Position numbers and translations under genes: made by a program
The notes under the pieces: generated by a model
Told to the model about the DNA's origin: nothing
What the model saw: the letters and a program-made list of their open reading frames with translations, nothing else
Database searches by the model: none
Part shown: positions 21,672-26,869 of the stretch, piece after piece
Position numbering within the stretch: position 1 is the first letter of the stretch
Layout of the letters: the number at the start of each line of letters is the position of its first letter
NCBI GenBank assembly: GCA_037383965.1
Contig: JARROL010000001.1
Location: 990 to 43,503 of the forward strand
Length of the DNA: 42,514 nt
Direction: 5' to 3'
DNA from: Desulfobacterales bacterium
GTDB lineage: Bacteria > Desulfobacterota > Desulfobacteria > Desulfobacterales > SG8-13

Positions 21672-22823
21672 ATGCAAGCCAATCGCGGTGCGCTTTGCGG
21701 GCTTCTGGTGCTCGACCTCTCAAGGCTTCTGCCCGGGCCGTACTGCACGATGATTCTGGCCGATCACGGGGCCCGGGTGATTGCCATCGAAGACCGGCGT
21801 TTTCGAGATGAGGATATTTTTCCGGCGACGGTCAACCGCAACAAAGAGCACATGACGCTCAACCTGAAGAGCGTCGAAGGGCGGCAGATTTTCTATCGCC
21901 TGGCCGCGGCGGCCGATGTCGTCGTGGAGGGCTTTCGGCCGGGCGTCGTGCAGCGGCTTGGCGTCGACTACGAGACCATCCATAAGATCAATCCCCGCAT
22001 CGTCTACTGCGCCGTTACCGGCTACGGTCAGACCGGACCGCTGAAGGACCGGGCCGGACACGACGTCAACTATCTGGCGCATGCCGGCGTGCTCGATCTG
22101 ATCGGCGAAGCCAACCGACCGCCGTCGATTCCCGGTGTGCAGATCGCCGATATGGCCGGCGGCGGGCTGAATGCGGCGATCGGCATTCTGTTGGCGCTTC
22201 TGGCACGCGGAAAGAGCGGCCGGGGCCAGTACATCGACATCTCGATGACCGACGGCGCGGCCAGTCTTCTCTCCCTTCAGCTTCACTTGCAACAGATCGA
22301 TGGCCGGTCTCCCCGCCGCGGCGACTCGCGGTTCTCGCACCGCTACGCCTGCTACAGCACTTATGAAACCCGCGACGGGCGCTATATCGCAATCGGTGCG
22401 GTCGAGAACCGGTTTTGGCAGATGCTCTGCGACCACTTCGGGGTGCCTGAATATGCGGCGCTTCAATACGACGAGGAGCGTCGGAACGAAATCCTGGCTT
22501 TCATGCGCAGCGCTATCAGGAAAAAGACCCTGGCGCAGTGGGAAGAGGAACTGGCGAACATCGACGCCTGCTGGGCGCCGGTCAAGTCACTGGATGATGT
22601 CCTTCATGCGCCGCTCTTCCGGGAAAGAGATATGGTGGTAAAGATCGAGGGCGAGGCAGGCGACACAACGCCGCTTCTCGGCACGCCGATCAAGCTGAGT
22701 GACACTCCCGGCGGCATCCGTACGGCTCCACCGGCCTTCGGGGGAAACACGCGCGCGATCCTCTCGGAATTCGGGTATTCCAGCGAAGAAATCAAAATGT
22801 TGCAAGAAAAAGGTGTTGTTTAA
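21672..22823 (+). CDS. Family III CoA-transferase (CaiB/BaiF / alpha-methylacyl-CoA racemase family)
   Basis: LLVLDLSRLLPGPYCTMILADHGARVIAIE, GRSPRRG. The ATG at 21672 is preferred over the GTG at 21666. Confidence 0.85.
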   Translation: MQANRGALCGLLVLDLSRLLPGPYCTMILADHGARVIAIEDRRFRDEDIFPATVNRNKEHMTLNLKSVEGRQIFYRLAAAADVVVEGFRPGVVQRLGVDYETIHKINPRIVYCAVTGYGQTGPLKDRAGHDVNYLAHAGVLDLIGEANRPPSIPGVQIADMAGGGLNAAIGILLALLARGKSGRGQYIDISMTDGAASLLSLQLHLQQIDGRSPRRGDSRFSHRYACYSTYETRDGRYIAIGAVENRFWQMLCDHFGVPEYAALQYDEERRNEILAFMRSAIRKKTLAQWEEELANIDACWAPVKSLDDVLHAPLFRERDMVVKIEGEAGDTTPLLGTPIKLSDTPGGIRTAPPAFGGNTRAILSEFGYSSEEIKMLQEKGVV

Positions 22824-22934
22824 CGGCCTCGAGTGATTAGATTTTAGCGTTTTGTAGTGGACCTGGAGCACAGCTCGCTTTAATCTGCAATAGCGGGACA
22901 TCTTGAATATCAACGAAAGATGACGTGATGACGA

Positions 22935-23042
22935 TTGGAATGTTGGAATATTGGCTTACTGGAGAAATGGGGTTTGAGGTATTGCATCTATAGATAACGA
23001 TTTCCTCTTTTTACGCAACATTCCAGCATTACAACATTCCAG
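22935..23042. promoter_or_regulatory. Repeat array of a TGGAATGTTG / CAACATTCCA decamer upstream of the GTPase pair
   Basis: TTGGAATGTTGGAATATTGG (22935-22954), and in inverted orientation CAACATTCCAG at 23016-23026 and 23032-23042 (16-bp period). Confidence 0.6.
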
Positions 23043-23104
23043 AAAGGTCGAATCGACCCGGCTTAAATAACCGGCCACTTAAGAGATAATATTAAAACGA
23101 TTCA

Positions 23105-25066
23105 ATGACACCCTTCGACACCTATCGGGAACCCTTGTCGAACCTGCGCGACCTCTTGCCGCGTCTGGTTGAGCTGCTGGAGATCGAAGACGCGGTATCC
23201 GGTGCGGCATGGAAAAATCTCGATGCCCGTCTCCTGCCGCTTGTCGACCCGCGCCTGCCGCTGATGGTGGCCATCTGCGGCGGCGCCAATTCAGGCAAAT
23301 CGACCCTGTTCAACTCCCTGTTGAAGACACGACTTTCGCTGGTGCGCGGTAACGCCGGGAGCACGCGCCGCGTGCTGATTGCCGGCCATCCGGATGTGCT
23401 TGCCCGCCAGGACTTTATTTCCGCGCTGTTCGATCCGTTCGGCAAAGTCCCCCAACCCCTGGATGATCCCGCCGAGTTGCTGGAACCCGGTCCGCCGTTG
23501 TATACCACCCATCCCGACGTCCCGCGGGACCAGATATTGATGGATACCCCTGACTTCGACACCGGCACGGAAGATCGGTACACCAACCGCGACATCGCTC
23601 GAGAGGTACTGGAGGCCTGCAATGTTCTGATTTACATCGTCACCAACACCACTTACAACAATCTTGAGAACACCCGCTTCATGCGCCAGGTCCTGACCGA
23701 GACGGGCATGCGCCGCTGCATCTTGGTTTACAGCTGCTCGCGTACCCTCACGGACAGTCAGGTGATGGACCACCTGTCGACTACGGCAGACAACCTTTAC
23801 GGCGCGACCCGGGACGATTATCTTATCGGCACCTACCGTACCGATACCAGTGATGCCGTAGCGGCCGGCAACGAGTTCATGAACCTGCGGCCGATCCAGC
23901 CCCGGGACCCGGACATTATGGAGCTGTTAGAACGGCTCGATCCCCGGGATATCAGAGAGCAGCAGATTCAAACCATGCTGACAGCTCTAGTGAAACACGT
24001 TCGGCAGGTTGTCGCGACGGCAAAAACCGTTCGAGACGAAATCGACCTTTACGGCAGCGTTATGCAACTGGCTCTCGCCCACGCCGTTCAGCAGTCGCTG
24101 GTTTCCTTTCCTCTGAAGAAAATCATATTGCGCATGAACGATATCTGGCTCGAAACCAGCCCATCGCACCTCAAGTTTTTTCGGGGAGTGGGCAGCGTGA
24201 TCGGCAAACCGGCTCGCATGATTTTTTCCCTGGTGCGTCTGGCAAAGGGCGGGGATAGCGATGCCATCGATCGGAAGGCGGGCGCAGTTGACACTCTTGA
24301 GCTGACCGAATCGAATCTGCTGGCCGGAGCTTCCGAACTGCGGGACAAAATCCTGGCTGAGGAAGTCATTGCCGAAACCATCGCCAAGGACCCGGAAGGT
24401 CGGCGTCTGAGCGCACTGGTCGACCAGATCAGGCAACGACGCGGACGCGACCAAAAGGAGTTGCCGTCCCGGCACATTTCCGCCGCCACCGGGACCGTTG
24501 TCCTCCACGTGGCGGCGCCGGCCTGCACGCACGACACTCGCAAAGAGATCGAGGGCCGTCCCTGGTCGGTGACGGCCGAGCGAATTCTCGCTACCGCTCC
24601 AGAGATTTTGAACATCGCGGAAGATGCAACGCTCAACCAGGAGTTGACCGACCTGGTCAACAACTTTCGGCAGGGCATGAATTTTCGCCAGAAAACCCGG
24701 GAATCATTTTTCGCATCTTTGAATGTCCTACCGGCGACCCTTGGGATTGCCTACATACTGACCACCGGTGATCCCGTGGGCGGCAGTGGGATTTACGCCA
24801 AGCTTCAAGGGATGTTCGGCATGCACGACCTGTGGGCCCTGGTGTCGGTACCGGCCTCGGCCGGGCTGGATGAAACCGGACGGCAGCGCTTGTCCGATAT
24901 GCTCGAGCCGGTGGTTAAAAAATGGGTCGAAAACCGGGCCTCTATCGTTCGGCGGCTTTTCGAAGAGACGCTTTCCGGCGCGGTATCCCGGGAAGTCGAT
25001 GAAACCGCCGAGACAGCCGAAGTGCTGTTGAAAAGGATTGAAGCGGAGTTGACGGCCTTTGGTTAA
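23105..25066 (+). CDS. Dynamin-like large GTPase (BDLP-type), subunit 1
   Basis: G1 AICGGANSGKSTLFNSLL. G3 ILMDTPDFDT. Dynamin_N-like CNVLIYIVTNTTYNNLENTRFMRQVL. Long helical middle region. Hydrophobic hairpin near the C-terminus (FFASLNVLPATLGIAYILTTG...LWALVSVPASAGL). Confidence 0.65.
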   Translation: MTPFDTYREPLSNLRDLLPRLVELLEIEDAVSGAAWKNLDARLLPLVDPRLPLMVAICGGANSGKSTLFNSLLKTRLSLVRGNAGSTRRVLIAGHPDVLARQDFISALFDPFGKVPQPLDDPAELLEPGPPLYTTHPDVPRDQILMDTPDFDTGTEDRYTNRDIAREVLEACNVLIYIVTNTTYNNLENTRFMRQVLTETGMRRCILVYSCSRTLTDSQVMDHLSTTADNLYGATRDDYLIGTYRTDTSDAVAAGNEFMNLRPIQPRDPDIMELLERLDPRDIREQQIQTMLTALVKHVRQVVATAKTVRDEIDLYGSVMQLALAHAVQQSLVSFPLKKIILRMNDIWLETSPSHLKFFRGVGSVIGKPARMIFSLVRLAKGGDSDAIDRKAGAVDTLELTESNLLAGASELRDKILAEEVIAETIAKDPEGRRLSALVDQIRQRRGRDQKELPSRHISAATGTVVLHVAAPACTHDTRKEIEGRPWSVTAERILATAPEILNIAEDATLNQELTDLVNNFRQGMNFRQKTRESFFASLNVLPATLGIAYILTTGDPVGGSGIYAKLQGMFGMHDLWALVSVPASAGLDETGRQRLSDMLEPVVKKWVENRASIVRRLFEETLSGAVSREVDETAETAEVLLKRIEAELTAFG

Positions 25067-25087
25067 CATATTCTGAAAGGAAACAAG

Positions 25088-26869
25088 ATGCCGAGCGCGA
25101 ACCCGGTGATCACTTTCGACGAATACCAGCTCAGGGCTCGCGGGCGCCTTTCGACCGCCCGGGAAACCATCAACGTTTACCGGGACATGGCCGGCGCGGC
25201 ACCCCATTGGAATCCGGCGCATGTCCTGCAAGCGGAATGTCGGGCGGCGATTGATCTGCTCGACAAAATGACGGAGAGATTGGACCGCAAGCTGGTTGTC
25301 ACCATGGTCGGACCCAGTGGGGCCGGCAAATCGACCCTCTTGAACGCTCTGTCCGGTGACGACAGGCTCTCGCGGGCCGGAGACGACAGGCCGACGACCA
25401 AAGAAGTGGTTGTTTTTTGCCGGTCTCGATCCGATGCCGATCTTCTTCTCTCAGGGCTCGCGCCCGATACGGTTACCGTGGCCCAGCGCCCGGGTGCCGC
25501 CGGGCTGGAGCACGTCATTCTGGTGGACACCCCCGACATGGACAGCACGGAAAGCGAAAAGTTCCACCCGGTCCTGGAGAAAACTCTTGCGCTGACCGAT
25601 GTGCTGGTGTGCGTGCTGAACGCCGAGAACCCGAAACGTCGTGACACGATTGTTTTCCTGAAGCGTTTCGTCGACCTCTTCCCCGGTAGCGCGCTCTATG
25701 TGGTGCTGAACCGCTGCGATCGCCTTCCGGAAGAAGAACTGATGACCACCATTTTGCCGGACCTGCGGAACCACCTCCAGGCTTCATGGCACAGAGAGGT
25801 AGACCACATATTCTGCATCAGCGCCCGCAGTCACCTCAATGATCCCCGCTGGCCCGAGGATGAAAAACCGCTTAACGACTTCGACCAATATCCACAGCTA
25901 CGTGACCTGATTTATGGCGCTCTGAACCGGGGCAGCCGCTTTGTCGATACCCGCGTGGAGCGAGCCGATCACCTGGTGGAGCTGGTCCGGCGGTCTGTCC
26001 GCTCCAATGTTGCGGCGGTGAAGGACCGGCTGATCGGTGTGCGCAAGGATATTCTCGTGCTGGAGCAAAAGGCGACGACGGCTGCAACGGCCGCCTTCAA
26101 AGAGAGCGGTACTCAGATGCTGACCGGCATTCAAGCCATGTTCTACCAGAATCTGGCCGGGCGATGGTGGGGCCCGGTCGGATGGCTGGTGGCCCTCTGG
26201 GCACGGTTTCTTATGGCCGGCGCCGGGGTGGTGGCCACGCTGCGTTTCGGCAACCCGGTTCTTCAACTCTGGGGGCTCGTCTCCTCCCTGGTGCGCTACC
26301 GTAAAACCCGCAGCGCGGTCGAAGAGGCCGCAACCGGTGGGGAAATGGCGCCGGTGATGCTCAAGTACCGCTTCACGCTTCAGCAGGCCTGGCCGGATAT
26401 TGCCGATAAATTGATTGCCTTGGGATTCAACGGCGGGGTACGGGACGCCGCCGCTGTTCTGCCGGACGAAAAGGCGCTGCAACAGCACCTGTCGACTTCA
26501 TGGAAATCCAAAATGGAGGCGGTGATGGAGCAAAGGGCCGCTTCCGTGTCGGGCTTTTTTCTGCAGCTGGTCTTCAATCTGCCGACCCTTGCGGTCATGG
26601 CACTCTTTGCCTTTCAGAGCGTCAAGAATTTTCTTTTTCAGTCGACCCTTTCATCCGGATACTTTTTGCATGCGGCGGTCAGTGTCCTGATGGTGTGGCT
26701 GCTCTCCTTCGTTCTATTTCAAGTCATCGTGCGGTTTGCCAGCGGCCGGAACCTGCTCGACCGTACTTTCAAGCGGTTGGTCGACGGGGTCGACACCGAC
26801 GGCAGTGAACTGCTGAGTCGCTCGATCGTGACAGAAATCGACGCCGTTCTGAGGTTGAAGGACGTGTAG
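25088..26869 (+). CDS. Dynamin-like large GTPase (BDLP-type), subunit 2, with C-terminal membrane segments
   Basis: G1 MVGPSGAGKSTLLNAL. G3 ILVDTPDMDS. G4 LNRCD. Hydrophobic segments WWGPVGWLVALWARFLMAGAGVVATL, FFLQLVFNLPTLAVMALFAF and AAVSVLMVWLLSFVLFQVIV. The 21-nt gap to subunit 1 has an AAAGGAAAC SD. Confidence 0.65.
   Translation: MPSANPVITFDEYQLRARGRLSTARETINVYRDMAGAAPHWNPAHVLQAECRAAIDLLDKMTERLDRKLVVTMVGPSGAGKSTLLNALSGDDRLSRAGDDRPTTKEVVVFCRSRSDADLLLSGLAPDTVTVAQRPGAAGLEHVILVDTPDMDSTESEKFHPVLEKTLALTDVLVCVLNAENPKRRDTIVFLKRFVDLFPGSALYVVLNRCDRLPEEELMTTILPDLRNHLQASWHREVDHIFCISARSHLNDPRWPEDEKPLNDFDQYPQLRDLIYGALNRGSRFVDTRVERADHLVELVRRSVRSNVAAVKDRLIGVRKDILVLEQKATTAATAAFKESGTQMLTGIQAMFYQNLAGRWWGPVGWLVALWARFLMAGAGVVATLRFGNPVLQLWGLVSSLVRYRKTRSAVEEAATGGEMAPVMLKYRFTLQQAWPDIADKLIALGFNGGVRDAAAVLPDEKALQQHLSTSWKSKMEAVMEQRAASVSGFFLQLVFNLPTLAVMALFAFQSVKNFLFQSTLSSGYFLHAAVSVLMVWLLSFVLFQVIVRFASGRNLLDRTFKRLVDGVDTDGSELLSRSIVTEIDAVLRLKDV

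Follow-up and report, generated by a model that had tools for sequence, protein, structure and literature searches.

How does a dynamin-type G domain work without the glycine of its DxxG motif? This question is raised by a locus in a 42,514-nt stretch of DNA from a Desulfobacterales bacterium (GenBank assembly GCA_037383965.1, contig JARROL010000001.1, positions 990–43,503; hereafter, the window), in which two adjacent genes encode large P-loop proteins that both carry aspartate in place of this glycine. The genes are co-directional and lie on the + strand, on which the motifs, hairpins, and spacers of the pair described below are also given. The first (positions 23105–25066, 653 aa, P0001) encodes subunit A, a dynamin-like protein (DLP) with a degenerate nucleotide pocket, and the second (positions 25088–26869, 593 aa, P0002) encodes subunit B, a DynB-like dynamin-like GTPase with a predicted membrane anchor. 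The original prediction, made from the sequence alone, described two large open reading frames (ORFs) of 653 and 593 aa with 21 nt between them as tandem heterotypic dynamin-like GTPases. The coordinates were confirmed, and no internal stop was found in either ORF. The pair is likely an operon-encoded heterotypic pair of bacterial DLPs that belongs to a DxPDxD[S/T] branch, in which the switch II glycine has changed to aspartate.

The fold of both proteins is that of the dynamin superfamily. AlphaFold2 models of B and A had predicted local distance difference test (pLDDT) scores of 84.4 and 79.1, respectively, and when these models were compared with the Protein Data Bank (PDB) using Foldseek, all 50 matches listed for each protein were dynamin-superfamily structures with a probability of 1.00. 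The top match for both was the Nostoc bacterial dynamin-like protein (BDLP) 2j69 (E-value 8e−12 for B and 1.4e−9 for A), and the other matches included IniA, Cj-DLP1/2, mitofusin/Fzo1, LeoA, SynDLP, EHD, Drp1, OPA1, and dynamin. Chain 5oxf_C (Cj-DLP2) gave the highest full-length TM-score for A (0.37/0.40), and B was superposed on MFN1/Fzo1 constructs comprising the G domain plus neck with a TMt of 0.51–0.56 and a root-mean-square deviation of 6.5–6.9 Å over approximately 350 columns. In both predicted structures, the G domain is followed by long helical regions, as had been anticipated, and the order of G domain, helical neck, and trunk is that of the BDLP class. At the sequence level, B scored 34.2 bits against the Pfam model Dynamin_N (cut-off 27), and precomputed PF00350 assignments exist for many members of the A and B families. 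A single-sequence phmmer search of the PDB returned only P-loop noise, and family profiles were needed (47 aligned sequences for B and 46 for A). The best PDB match of the B-family profile was Cj-DLP1 (3.9e−8), with G3 and G4 in register, and a scan of the genome contigs with the B-family alignment via P-loop patterns found only unrelated P-loop proteins. The A and B families could be aligned with each other over the G domain only (hhalign probability 98.5), indicating that the pair is deeply heterotypic. The description of the locus as tandem heterotypic dynamin-like GTPases was thus upheld, with BDLPs as the best fold matches.

The same searches bear on another explanation, namely, that A and B are GTPases of the Era/EngA/HflX type (TRAFAC, MMR_HSR1), associated with the ribosome or with assembly, that have long C-terminal extensions and no part in membrane remodeling, an assignment that the original prediction had itself raised as its counterpoint. 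Both proteins scored above the cut-off of the Pfam model MMR_HSR1 (A, 30.7 bits; B, 32.2 bits; cut-off 21.9), the best PDB sequence matches of the A-family profile were EngA and Era, several database entries are named “50S ribosome-binding GTPase,” and matches were obtained to the NCBIfam models Der, Era, and MnmE. However, MMR_HSR1 is a generic G-domain model, and the NCBIfam matches are partial, covering approximately 35–50 residues around the P-loop and G2 with scores of 14–34 bits against equivalog cut-offs of 116–631. Der, for example, reached 30.6 bits (cut-off 306.7) and Era 33.7 bits (cut-off 237) over approximately 35–45 residues around the P-loop, and the match to MnmE was also partial. 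Furthermore, a KH domain, an RNA-binding domain, and a second G domain are all absent, the full-length fold matches are all to the dynamin superfamily, and B has charge-free predicted transmembrane (TM) helices. An Era/EngA identity was rejected because the matches are short and partial (approximately 30 bits over the P-loop stretch), and we regard this explanation as scarcely credible.

Within the dynamin-type fold, the nucleotide-binding motifs of the two subunits have diverged to different extents. In B, the G1 motif, or P-loop, is GPSGAGKST (residues 75–83, positions 25310–25336), in which G75, G78, G80, K81, S82, and T83 are invariant in 47/47 sequences, and the family pattern G-P-x-G-x-G-K-S-T is invariant as well. 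The G2 motif in switch I is RPTT (residues 101–104, positions 25388–25399), which is also invariant (47/47) and occurs in the same form in both of the Streptomyces proteins described below. G4 is NRCD (residues 208–211, positions 25709–25720), with Asn in 43 and Asp in all 47 sequences, followed by an invariant Arg, so that the family pattern reads N-(R/K/H)-C-D-R. This motif aligns with TKAD of Cj-DLP1 and with NQID of the Streptomyces DynB-like protein. In A, the P-loop is GGANSGKS (residues 59–66, positions 23279–23302; G59, G60, G64, K65, and S66 invariant in 46/46), and the family pattern C-G-G-x-x-x-G-K-S-T is likewise invariant. At the G2 position, Thr is not conserved (N in 24 sequences and T in 21). 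The position of G4 reads LVYSCSR (residues 207–213, positions 23723–23743) on a predicted strand at residues 204–211. Across the A family, the corresponding columns contain Tyr (46/46), Arg/Asn/Ser, Cys/Val, and Tyr/Ser; Asn is absent from the first position, and Asp occurs at the fourth in only 1/46. The original claims that G1 is present in both proteins and that an NxxD G4 exists only in the second were therefore borne out, and the view of the first subunit as a degenerate partner gains support from the loss of G4 throughout the A family. As a separate observation, Cys58 of A (positions 23276–23278), just before the P-loop, is invariant, and Cys175 and Cys210 of B, the latter being the Cys of N-R-C-D, are invariant or nearly so. 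A redox role for these motif-adjacent cysteines is conceivable.

The claim that G3 is present in both proteins did not hold, because the canonical DxxG is absent and DTPD takes its place in each. Switch II of A is DTPDFDTG (residues 147–154, positions 23543–23566), with Asp150 at the position of the DxxG glycine; P149, D150, D152, T153, and G154 are invariant, and D147 and T148 are conserved in 45/46 sequences. Switch II of B is DTPDMDS (residues 147–153, positions 25526–25546), in which Asp150 again replaces the glycine; D147, P149, D150, and S153 are present in 47/47 sequences and T148 in 43/47. No sequence in either family departs from aspartate at the position of the glycine (46/46 and 47/47). 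HMMER aligned vDTPDtDS of the B family to VDTPGLDD of Cj-DLP1, placing the Asp opposite the glycine of DTPG, and DTPD lies at the end of the predicted β3 strand in both models (strand 143–147 in A). This strand placement and the register with Cj-DLP1 indicate that DTPD is not an alignment artifact. The canonical G1–G4 set is consequently incomplete, with G1 in both proteins, the G3 glycine replaced by Asp in both, and no G4 in A; this failure concerns the motif set and not the fold. Among more distant A-type relatives (P0342, P0347, P0350, P0351, P0356, P0385, P0318, and P0384), the switch II motif reads DTPA, DTPS, DTPP, DVPS, or DTPG/DSPG, and all of these proteins lack G4. Over the A-type assemblage, the glycine position is filled by D, A, S, P, or occasionally G, and G4 is absent in 20/20 aligned sequences. 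This variety suggests that the glycine position is free to vary among distant A types, while B types keep the Asp.

Hydropathy was examined as family-averaged Kyte–Doolittle (KD) values in 19-residue windows over both alignments. In B, a Trp/Gly-rich hydrophobic hairpin occupies residues 362–402 (positions 26171–26293), with a family KD of 1.78 (window at 367) and 5% charged residues. Within it, G362, P363, G365, G378, G380, R386, and G388 are invariant, W366 is conserved in at least 90% of sequences, Arg373 is nearly invariant, and the loop at residues 379–387 has a low pLDDT. This segment is probably re-entrant or paddle-like and not fully spanning. A second hairpin in B is formed by predicted TM helices at residues 490–516 and 523–551 (positions 26555–26740; KD 1.69 at 490 and 2.52 at 530, with 0% charged residues in these windows). 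These helices are 27 and 29 residues long, and their hydrophobic moments are low (0.48 and 0.53), whereas the other stalk helices of both proteins are 19–36% charged and mostly more amphipathic. The B hairpins are bordered by Arg and Lys at their presumed cytoplasmic ends, an arrangement that fits a topology in which the N-terminus, the C-terminus, and the G domain of B would all be cytoplasmic. In A, a hydrophobic hairpin surrounds a GDPVGG turn at residues 534–588 (positions 24704–24868; KD 1.62 at 534 and 1.21 at 570). It is 0–6% charged and contains many invariant columns, including P543, Y550, T554, D556, G559, and G569, but is modeled poorly (AlphaFold2 pLDDT 35–50). This hairpin is a candidate membrane paddle or B-binding element. 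By hydropathy, then, each protein has potential membrane-binding elements that are conserved and charge-poor (B, 362–402 and 490–551; A, 534–588). The hydrophobic paddle or TM segments that had been placed near the C-terminus are real, although the segment at 362–402 of B lies in the middle of the protein. The concern that they might be buried core helices is not supported by these family-averaged measures, according to which the segments are uniformly hydrophobic, nearly free of charge, and low in moment. For B, this evidence, although indirect, clearly favors membrane segments.

The closest studied relatives of the pair were found in Streptomyces. There, dynA lies upstream of dynB, the P-loop lysine of DynA is K74, and DynB, which is anchored by two TM segments, recruits DynA, for which both P-loops are needed (PMC8748795; bioRxiv 10.1101/2025.06.23.661029). 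When two Streptomyces genomes were searched with both profiles, each contained one tandem pair; the A profile gave the best match to the first gene (55 bits) and the B profile the best match to the second (83 bits). The first protein contains GGSTGAGKST, RPTT, and LLDAPDIDS, with the P-loop lysine at residue 72–73 (GTG start), and the second contains GATGSGKS, RRPTT, VDLPDHDS, and VVLNQIDRLP, with two hydrophobic segments at 560–601. Its gene order, TM segments, and P-loop lysine position fit the published descriptions well and suggest that this pair is DynA/DynB; the assignment draws on these features and not on the sequence of S. venezuelae vnz_12105 (DynB). The D-x-P-D switch II is thus common to both subunits in both settings, as DTPD/DTPD here and DAPD/DLPD in the two Streptomyces genomes. 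In hhalign comparisons, B matched the DynB-like protein with a probability of 99.2 (34% identity over 216 columns) and A matched the DynA-like protein with a probability of 97.9 (27% identity over 181 columns). In a maximum-likelihood tree of the G domain only, which was built from 214 columns and has long branches, the B family was monophyletic (100/98) and sister to the DynB-like protein with moderate support (85/66), and B grouped with both Streptomyces proteins, DynA-like and DynB-like (100/94). The closest studied pair, Streptomyces DynA/DynB, was not among the relatives named at the outset (DynA, LeoA/B/C, IniA/C, and Cj-DLP1/2).

Both genes are inherited together. Among 41 genomes (the host genome and 40 relatives), both genes were present in 25 and both were absent from 15, and the remaining genome, which is 72% complete, contained only a fragment of A at a contig end. 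In 21 of the 25 genomes with both genes, A and B lie on the same contig within approximately 150 bp of each other. In three draft genomes, they are located at the ends of different contigs, where adjacency cannot be judged, and the only clearly unlinked case is G027, in which they are approximately 690 kb apart (contig C1, 191445–193358 and 880398–882134). In all relatives and contexts examined, A preceded B, and the two genes often overlapped by 4 bp; these contexts included Desulfosarcina ovata, Desulfonema magnum, other metagenome-assembled genomes (MAGs), and Myxococcota, where one pair has an A protein sharing 41% identity with the window A. The pair is present in a single copy and is found throughout the genus with few exceptions and in roughly half of the order's families, and in an even sample of 300 genomes of the phylum, B was found in only two others. 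It is therefore essentially characteristic of the order, with scattered occurrences outside it. An exhaustive search with the A-family profile yielded 444 clusters at E ≤ 1e−10; at E ≤ 1e−30 there were 143, many of which are fragments. Synteny of the flanking genes (CoA-transferase, enoyl-CoA hydratase, and threonine dehydratase) was seen only within the family to which the window belongs. In Desulfosarcina ovata and a related MAG (L031:1–6004 and L037:1–5004), the pair directly follows a gene for an M48 (HtpX-like) peptidase and lies beside HSP20 and Lon genes.

This distribution is pertinent to the possibility that the two genes constitute a mobile anti-phage module of the Eleos (LeoA/LeoBC) type, which would sense phage at the membrane and then seal the membrane or abort infection. 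PADLOC models of LeoA and LeoBC matched B, and that of LeoA matched A; the LeoA structure 4aur was among the fold matches; and B. subtilis DynA reportedly contributes to phage defense (PMC12998192). The PADLOC matches are, however, partial and at the level of the G domain: LeoA matched B with 3e−12 over residues 141–316 only and A with 1.2e−3 (16 bits), and LeoBC matched B with 3.8e−6 over 26 residues (24 bits), with no full-length match to either component. Meanwhile, no homologue was found in 50,697 phage records, and the one match in 72,556 plasmid records was to NZ_LT559118.1 (PLSDB), an 11.85-Mb replicon of Nonomuraea gerenzanensis. This record is evidently chromosome-sized and filed as a plasmid, and the match, with 33% identity over residues 70–231, has no annotated feature beneath it. 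The GC content of the pair (0.58–0.59) equals that of its flanks, so that base composition gives no island signal, and no integrase or transposase was found near the pair within the window. Single-copy occurrence, co-inheritance, adjacency, and absence from phages and true plasmids argue against a mobile defense system, as do the syntenic housekeeping flanks within the family. An Eleos or defense identity was largely rejected on the grounds of this distribution and the lack of a mobile context; we consider it very improbable. The phage-response role originally suggested for the pair is also unlikely, because the genes are inherited vertically and are missing from mobile elements.

The pair is also transcribed in the environment. 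RNA contigs 92–99% identical to the region were obtained from four marsh or rhizosphere metatranscriptomes and cover both genes; they are assembled contigs of close relatives, and metatranscriptomes can carry DNA. The junction between A and B is bridged by an RNA contig in three of the four runs (X25, 24829–25161; X26, 24971–25338; and X28, 24947–25626). At this junction, the TAA stop of A is followed by a 21-nt spacer, CATATTCTGAAAGGAAACAAG (positions 25067–25087), and then by the ATG of B; reading this spacer showed a ribosome-binding site, AAAGGAAA, on the 5′ side of the ATG. Upstream, a 281-nt non-coding spacer (positions 22824–23104) separates the pair from a CoA-transferase gene and is likely to contain the promoter and 5′ leader. 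RNA coverage begins within this spacer at approximately 22901–22952, and the CoA-transferase region at 22400–22733 has zero RNA depth in three of the four metatranscriptomes. The onset of RNA in the spacer, the silent upstream gene, and the junction contigs together support co-transcription of a two-gene operon from its own promoter. A σ54-like −24/−12 candidate, TGGAGCACAGCTCGCT (GG-N10-GC), was picked by eye at 22864–22879, and the RNA contigs start approximately 20–70 nt downstream of it. This element was not clearly conserved in three relatives, and an alignment of the upstream spacers gave no conserved promoter.

We infer the topology, heterodimerization, and nucleotide gating of the pair along the following lines. 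B would be an integral inner-membrane DLP, composed of an N-terminal helical neck, a G domain with intact G1, G2, and G4, a helical stalk, the Trp/Gly-rich re-entrant hairpin, and the two-helix TM hairpin, and would be the Desulfobacterales counterpart of Streptomyces DynB. A would be a peripheral DLP in which the P-loop and the Walker-B aspartate are intact, the guanine-specificity motif G4 is lost, and the hydrophobic hairpin is conserved. Both subunits would bind nucleotide, and nucleotide-dependent pairing of the G domains would bring A to membrane-anchored B, as has been concluded for Streptomyces from P-loop lysine mutants of DynA and DynB (PMC8748795; bioRxiv 10.1101/2025.06.23.661029). 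The A–B assembly would then tether, shape, or stabilize the cytoplasmic membrane, a mechanism modeled on the literature on DynAB and other DLP pairs (PMC6104087, PMC5827413, PMC8748795, and the 2025 preprint). Because Asp replaces the γ-phosphate-sensing Gly and the partner is degenerate, the assembly would probably be a slow nucleotide-gated switch or scaffold and not a fast mechano-enzyme. This reading of the Asp-for-Gly change and of the loss of G4 as signs of slow hydrolysis or switching is speculative, as is a possible relaxation of base specificity in A.

Several points weigh against this picture of a DynB-like, membrane-anchored pair. The insertion of B into the membrane is indicated by hydropathy only, and the identity of the Streptomyces pair as DynA/DynB was reasoned from gene order, TM segments, and lysine position. 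Sequence similarity to solved or studied DLPs is limited to the G domain. Identity in the structural alignments is 10–17%, with global TM-scores of 0.2–0.4, the low values arising because these are hinged multi-domain proteins whose domains are posed differently. The Dynamin_N score of A, 25.8 bits, is just below the cut-off of 27, although summing frame neighbors in the genome scan raises it to 31.1 bits. A did not group with the DynA-like protein in the G-domain tree but fell in a separate, diverse A-type assemblage, which implies that the pair is not a simple DynAB orthologue. By G-domain sequence, B appears to be a distant DynB relative, and A appears to be no DynA orthologue and to lack a characterized close relative. 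Finally, across seven genomic contexts, no conserved third gene pointing to a process was found.

Division-site stabilization and membrane repair are the candidates for the physiological role. The former is suggested by the relationship of B to DynB, although no division gene was found next to the pair in any context seen. The best fold matches point to the latter, as does the M48/HSP20/Lon neighborhood of the Desulfosarcina lineage. A DLP pair of the same identity could respond to stress by repairing or fusing membranes, the role proposed for B. subtilis DynA, Cj-DLP1/2, and IniA/IniC, instead of acting as a DynAB-like division scaffold. BDLP, Cj-DLP1/2, and IniA are the best fold matches, genes for envelope and protein stress adjoin the pair in Desulfosarcina, and the position of the possible σ54 −24/−12 element fits the RNA 5′ ends. 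However, the Lon/HSP20/M48 context is confined to one lineage of two related genomes, being absent from the window, Desulfonema, Myxococcota, and the other contexts, and the σ54-like element is not clearly conserved. Furthermore, the nearest studied relative of B is a division-associated DynB-like protein, and the pair is transcribed in situ in marsh and rhizosphere samples with no known stress. A repair role is a real possibility to which we give somewhat less than an even chance. A bolder proposal is that the DxPDxD[S/T] pairs, here and in Streptomyces DynAB, form a mechanistically distinct branch of slow, possibly GTP/ATP-promiscuous switches or scaffolds, which in Desulfobacterales would serve septum or membrane architecture at division. 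In this branch, aspartate would stand in for a γ-phosphate-sensing glycine that is otherwise universally conserved, and the A-type partner would in addition have given up guanine recognition. Desulfobacterales include filamentous and aggregate-forming genera. We consider this proposal rather unlikely; if it were true, the division function of DynAB would be extended well beyond actinobacteria.

Other features of the locus and genome are as follows. On the 3′ side, a convergent threonine-dehydratase-like gene (PALP+ACT) ends 21 nt past B. In the upstream spacer, TGGAATG and CATTCCA units occur at 22930–23050 and are greatly expanded in a genome of the same genus (L030:5751–6223), where a long run of TGGA-containing heptamer-like units is followed by approximately 12 CATTCCA units, so that the tandem heptamers make up a long, imperfect hairpin. 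This array looks like a variable-length repeat element and not a fixed operator. The genome from which the window comes also encodes a third, solitary DLP of 748 aa (P0243, contig C47, L042:5997–8243, minus strand), which is more canonical (Dynamin_N, 62.9 bits) and lies tail-to-tail with a YcaO-TPR gene. Its candidate G3, DCQG, which has the glycine, was picked by eye and has no alignment support.

Literature searches for DLPs of Deltaproteobacteria or sulfate reducers, and for a “DTPD” GTPase motif, brought up nothing relevant. By these searches, the pair was not already known, yet it varies on a familiar theme, as the genes of most bacterial DLPs lie next to each other in operons and such pairing is the rule (PMC6104087). 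The finding by itself is therefore an incremental, modest extension of a known kind of system. Paired bacterial DLPs are common but few have been studied, and roles in membrane repair, division, vesiculation, and phage defense are emerging. To these, the locus adds an example from sulfate-reducing Desulfobacterales that is restricted to its lineage, inherited vertically, and transcribed, with three directly testable features: the switch II Asp in both subunits, an A subunit without the guanine-specificity motif, and a B subunit with predicted TM helices. Because the same switch II change occurs in Streptomyces proteins that fit DynA/DynB, the unusual chemistry would belong to proteins with a known phenotype.

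Comparison with known systems places the pair as follows. Era and EngA (Der) share the stretch from the P-loop to G2, G-x-x-x-x-GKST-LFN...G-x-T-R, but only approximately 40 residues match, the scores are tenfold under the cut-offs, and the fold and domain content are different. Eleos LeoA/LeoBC (PADLOC PDLC03839 and PDLC03841; LeoA, 4aur) is also a two-gene dynamin-like module, whereas the pair described here is vertically inherited, lies outside islands, and is absent from phages and true plasmids. Mitofusin/Fzo1 (5yew, 5gom, 9kfd, and others) are permanently anchored fusion DLPs whose TM hairpin lies between helices of the stalk and gave the best local superpositions for B; they differ in being eukaryotic outer-mitochondrial-membrane proteins with a canonical G3, and their solved constructs are truncated. 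The superpositions do not imply orthology. Nostoc punctiforme BDLP1 (2j68/2j69), the G motifs of which are canonical, has the same G domain, helical neck and trunk, and hydrophobic membrane-inserting tip, with 12–13% identity and TM-scores of 0.2–0.3. Its paddle is transient (PMC6104087), which distinguishes it from B. Campylobacter jejuni Cj-DLP1/Cj-DLP2 (PDB 5owv/5oxf) is likewise a heterotypic operon pair of bacterial DLPs, but its tetramer is cytosolic and recruited to the membrane (PMC6104087), whereas B has predicted TM helices. Cj-DLP1 also differs in its canonical DTPG and TKAD motifs, and identity is 10–14%.

Streptomyces DynA/DynB, reportedly the subject of a study by Schlimpert et al. 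in 2017 (PNAS 114:E6176), resemble the pair most closely. Both systems have adjacent co-directional genes in the order A then B, with the soluble partner first and the TM-anchored partner second, and the second protein ends in a C-terminal two-helix TM hairpin. The Streptomyces pair also has DxPD in both proteins and RPTT at G2, and G4 of its B protein reads N-x-x-D-R-L-P. In contrast, homology is detectable over the G domain only (27–34% identity), and the DynA-like G domain keeps RPTT and groups with the B type, whereas the A clade lacks a conserved G2 Thr. B has an additional Trp/Gly hydrophobic hairpin (362–402) compared with the DynB-like protein, and A has a GDPVGG hairpin, whereas no hydrophobic window of this kind was found toward the C-terminus of the Streptomyces DynA-like protein. 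The host here, unlike Streptomyces, is a non-sporulating Desulfobacterales bacterium.

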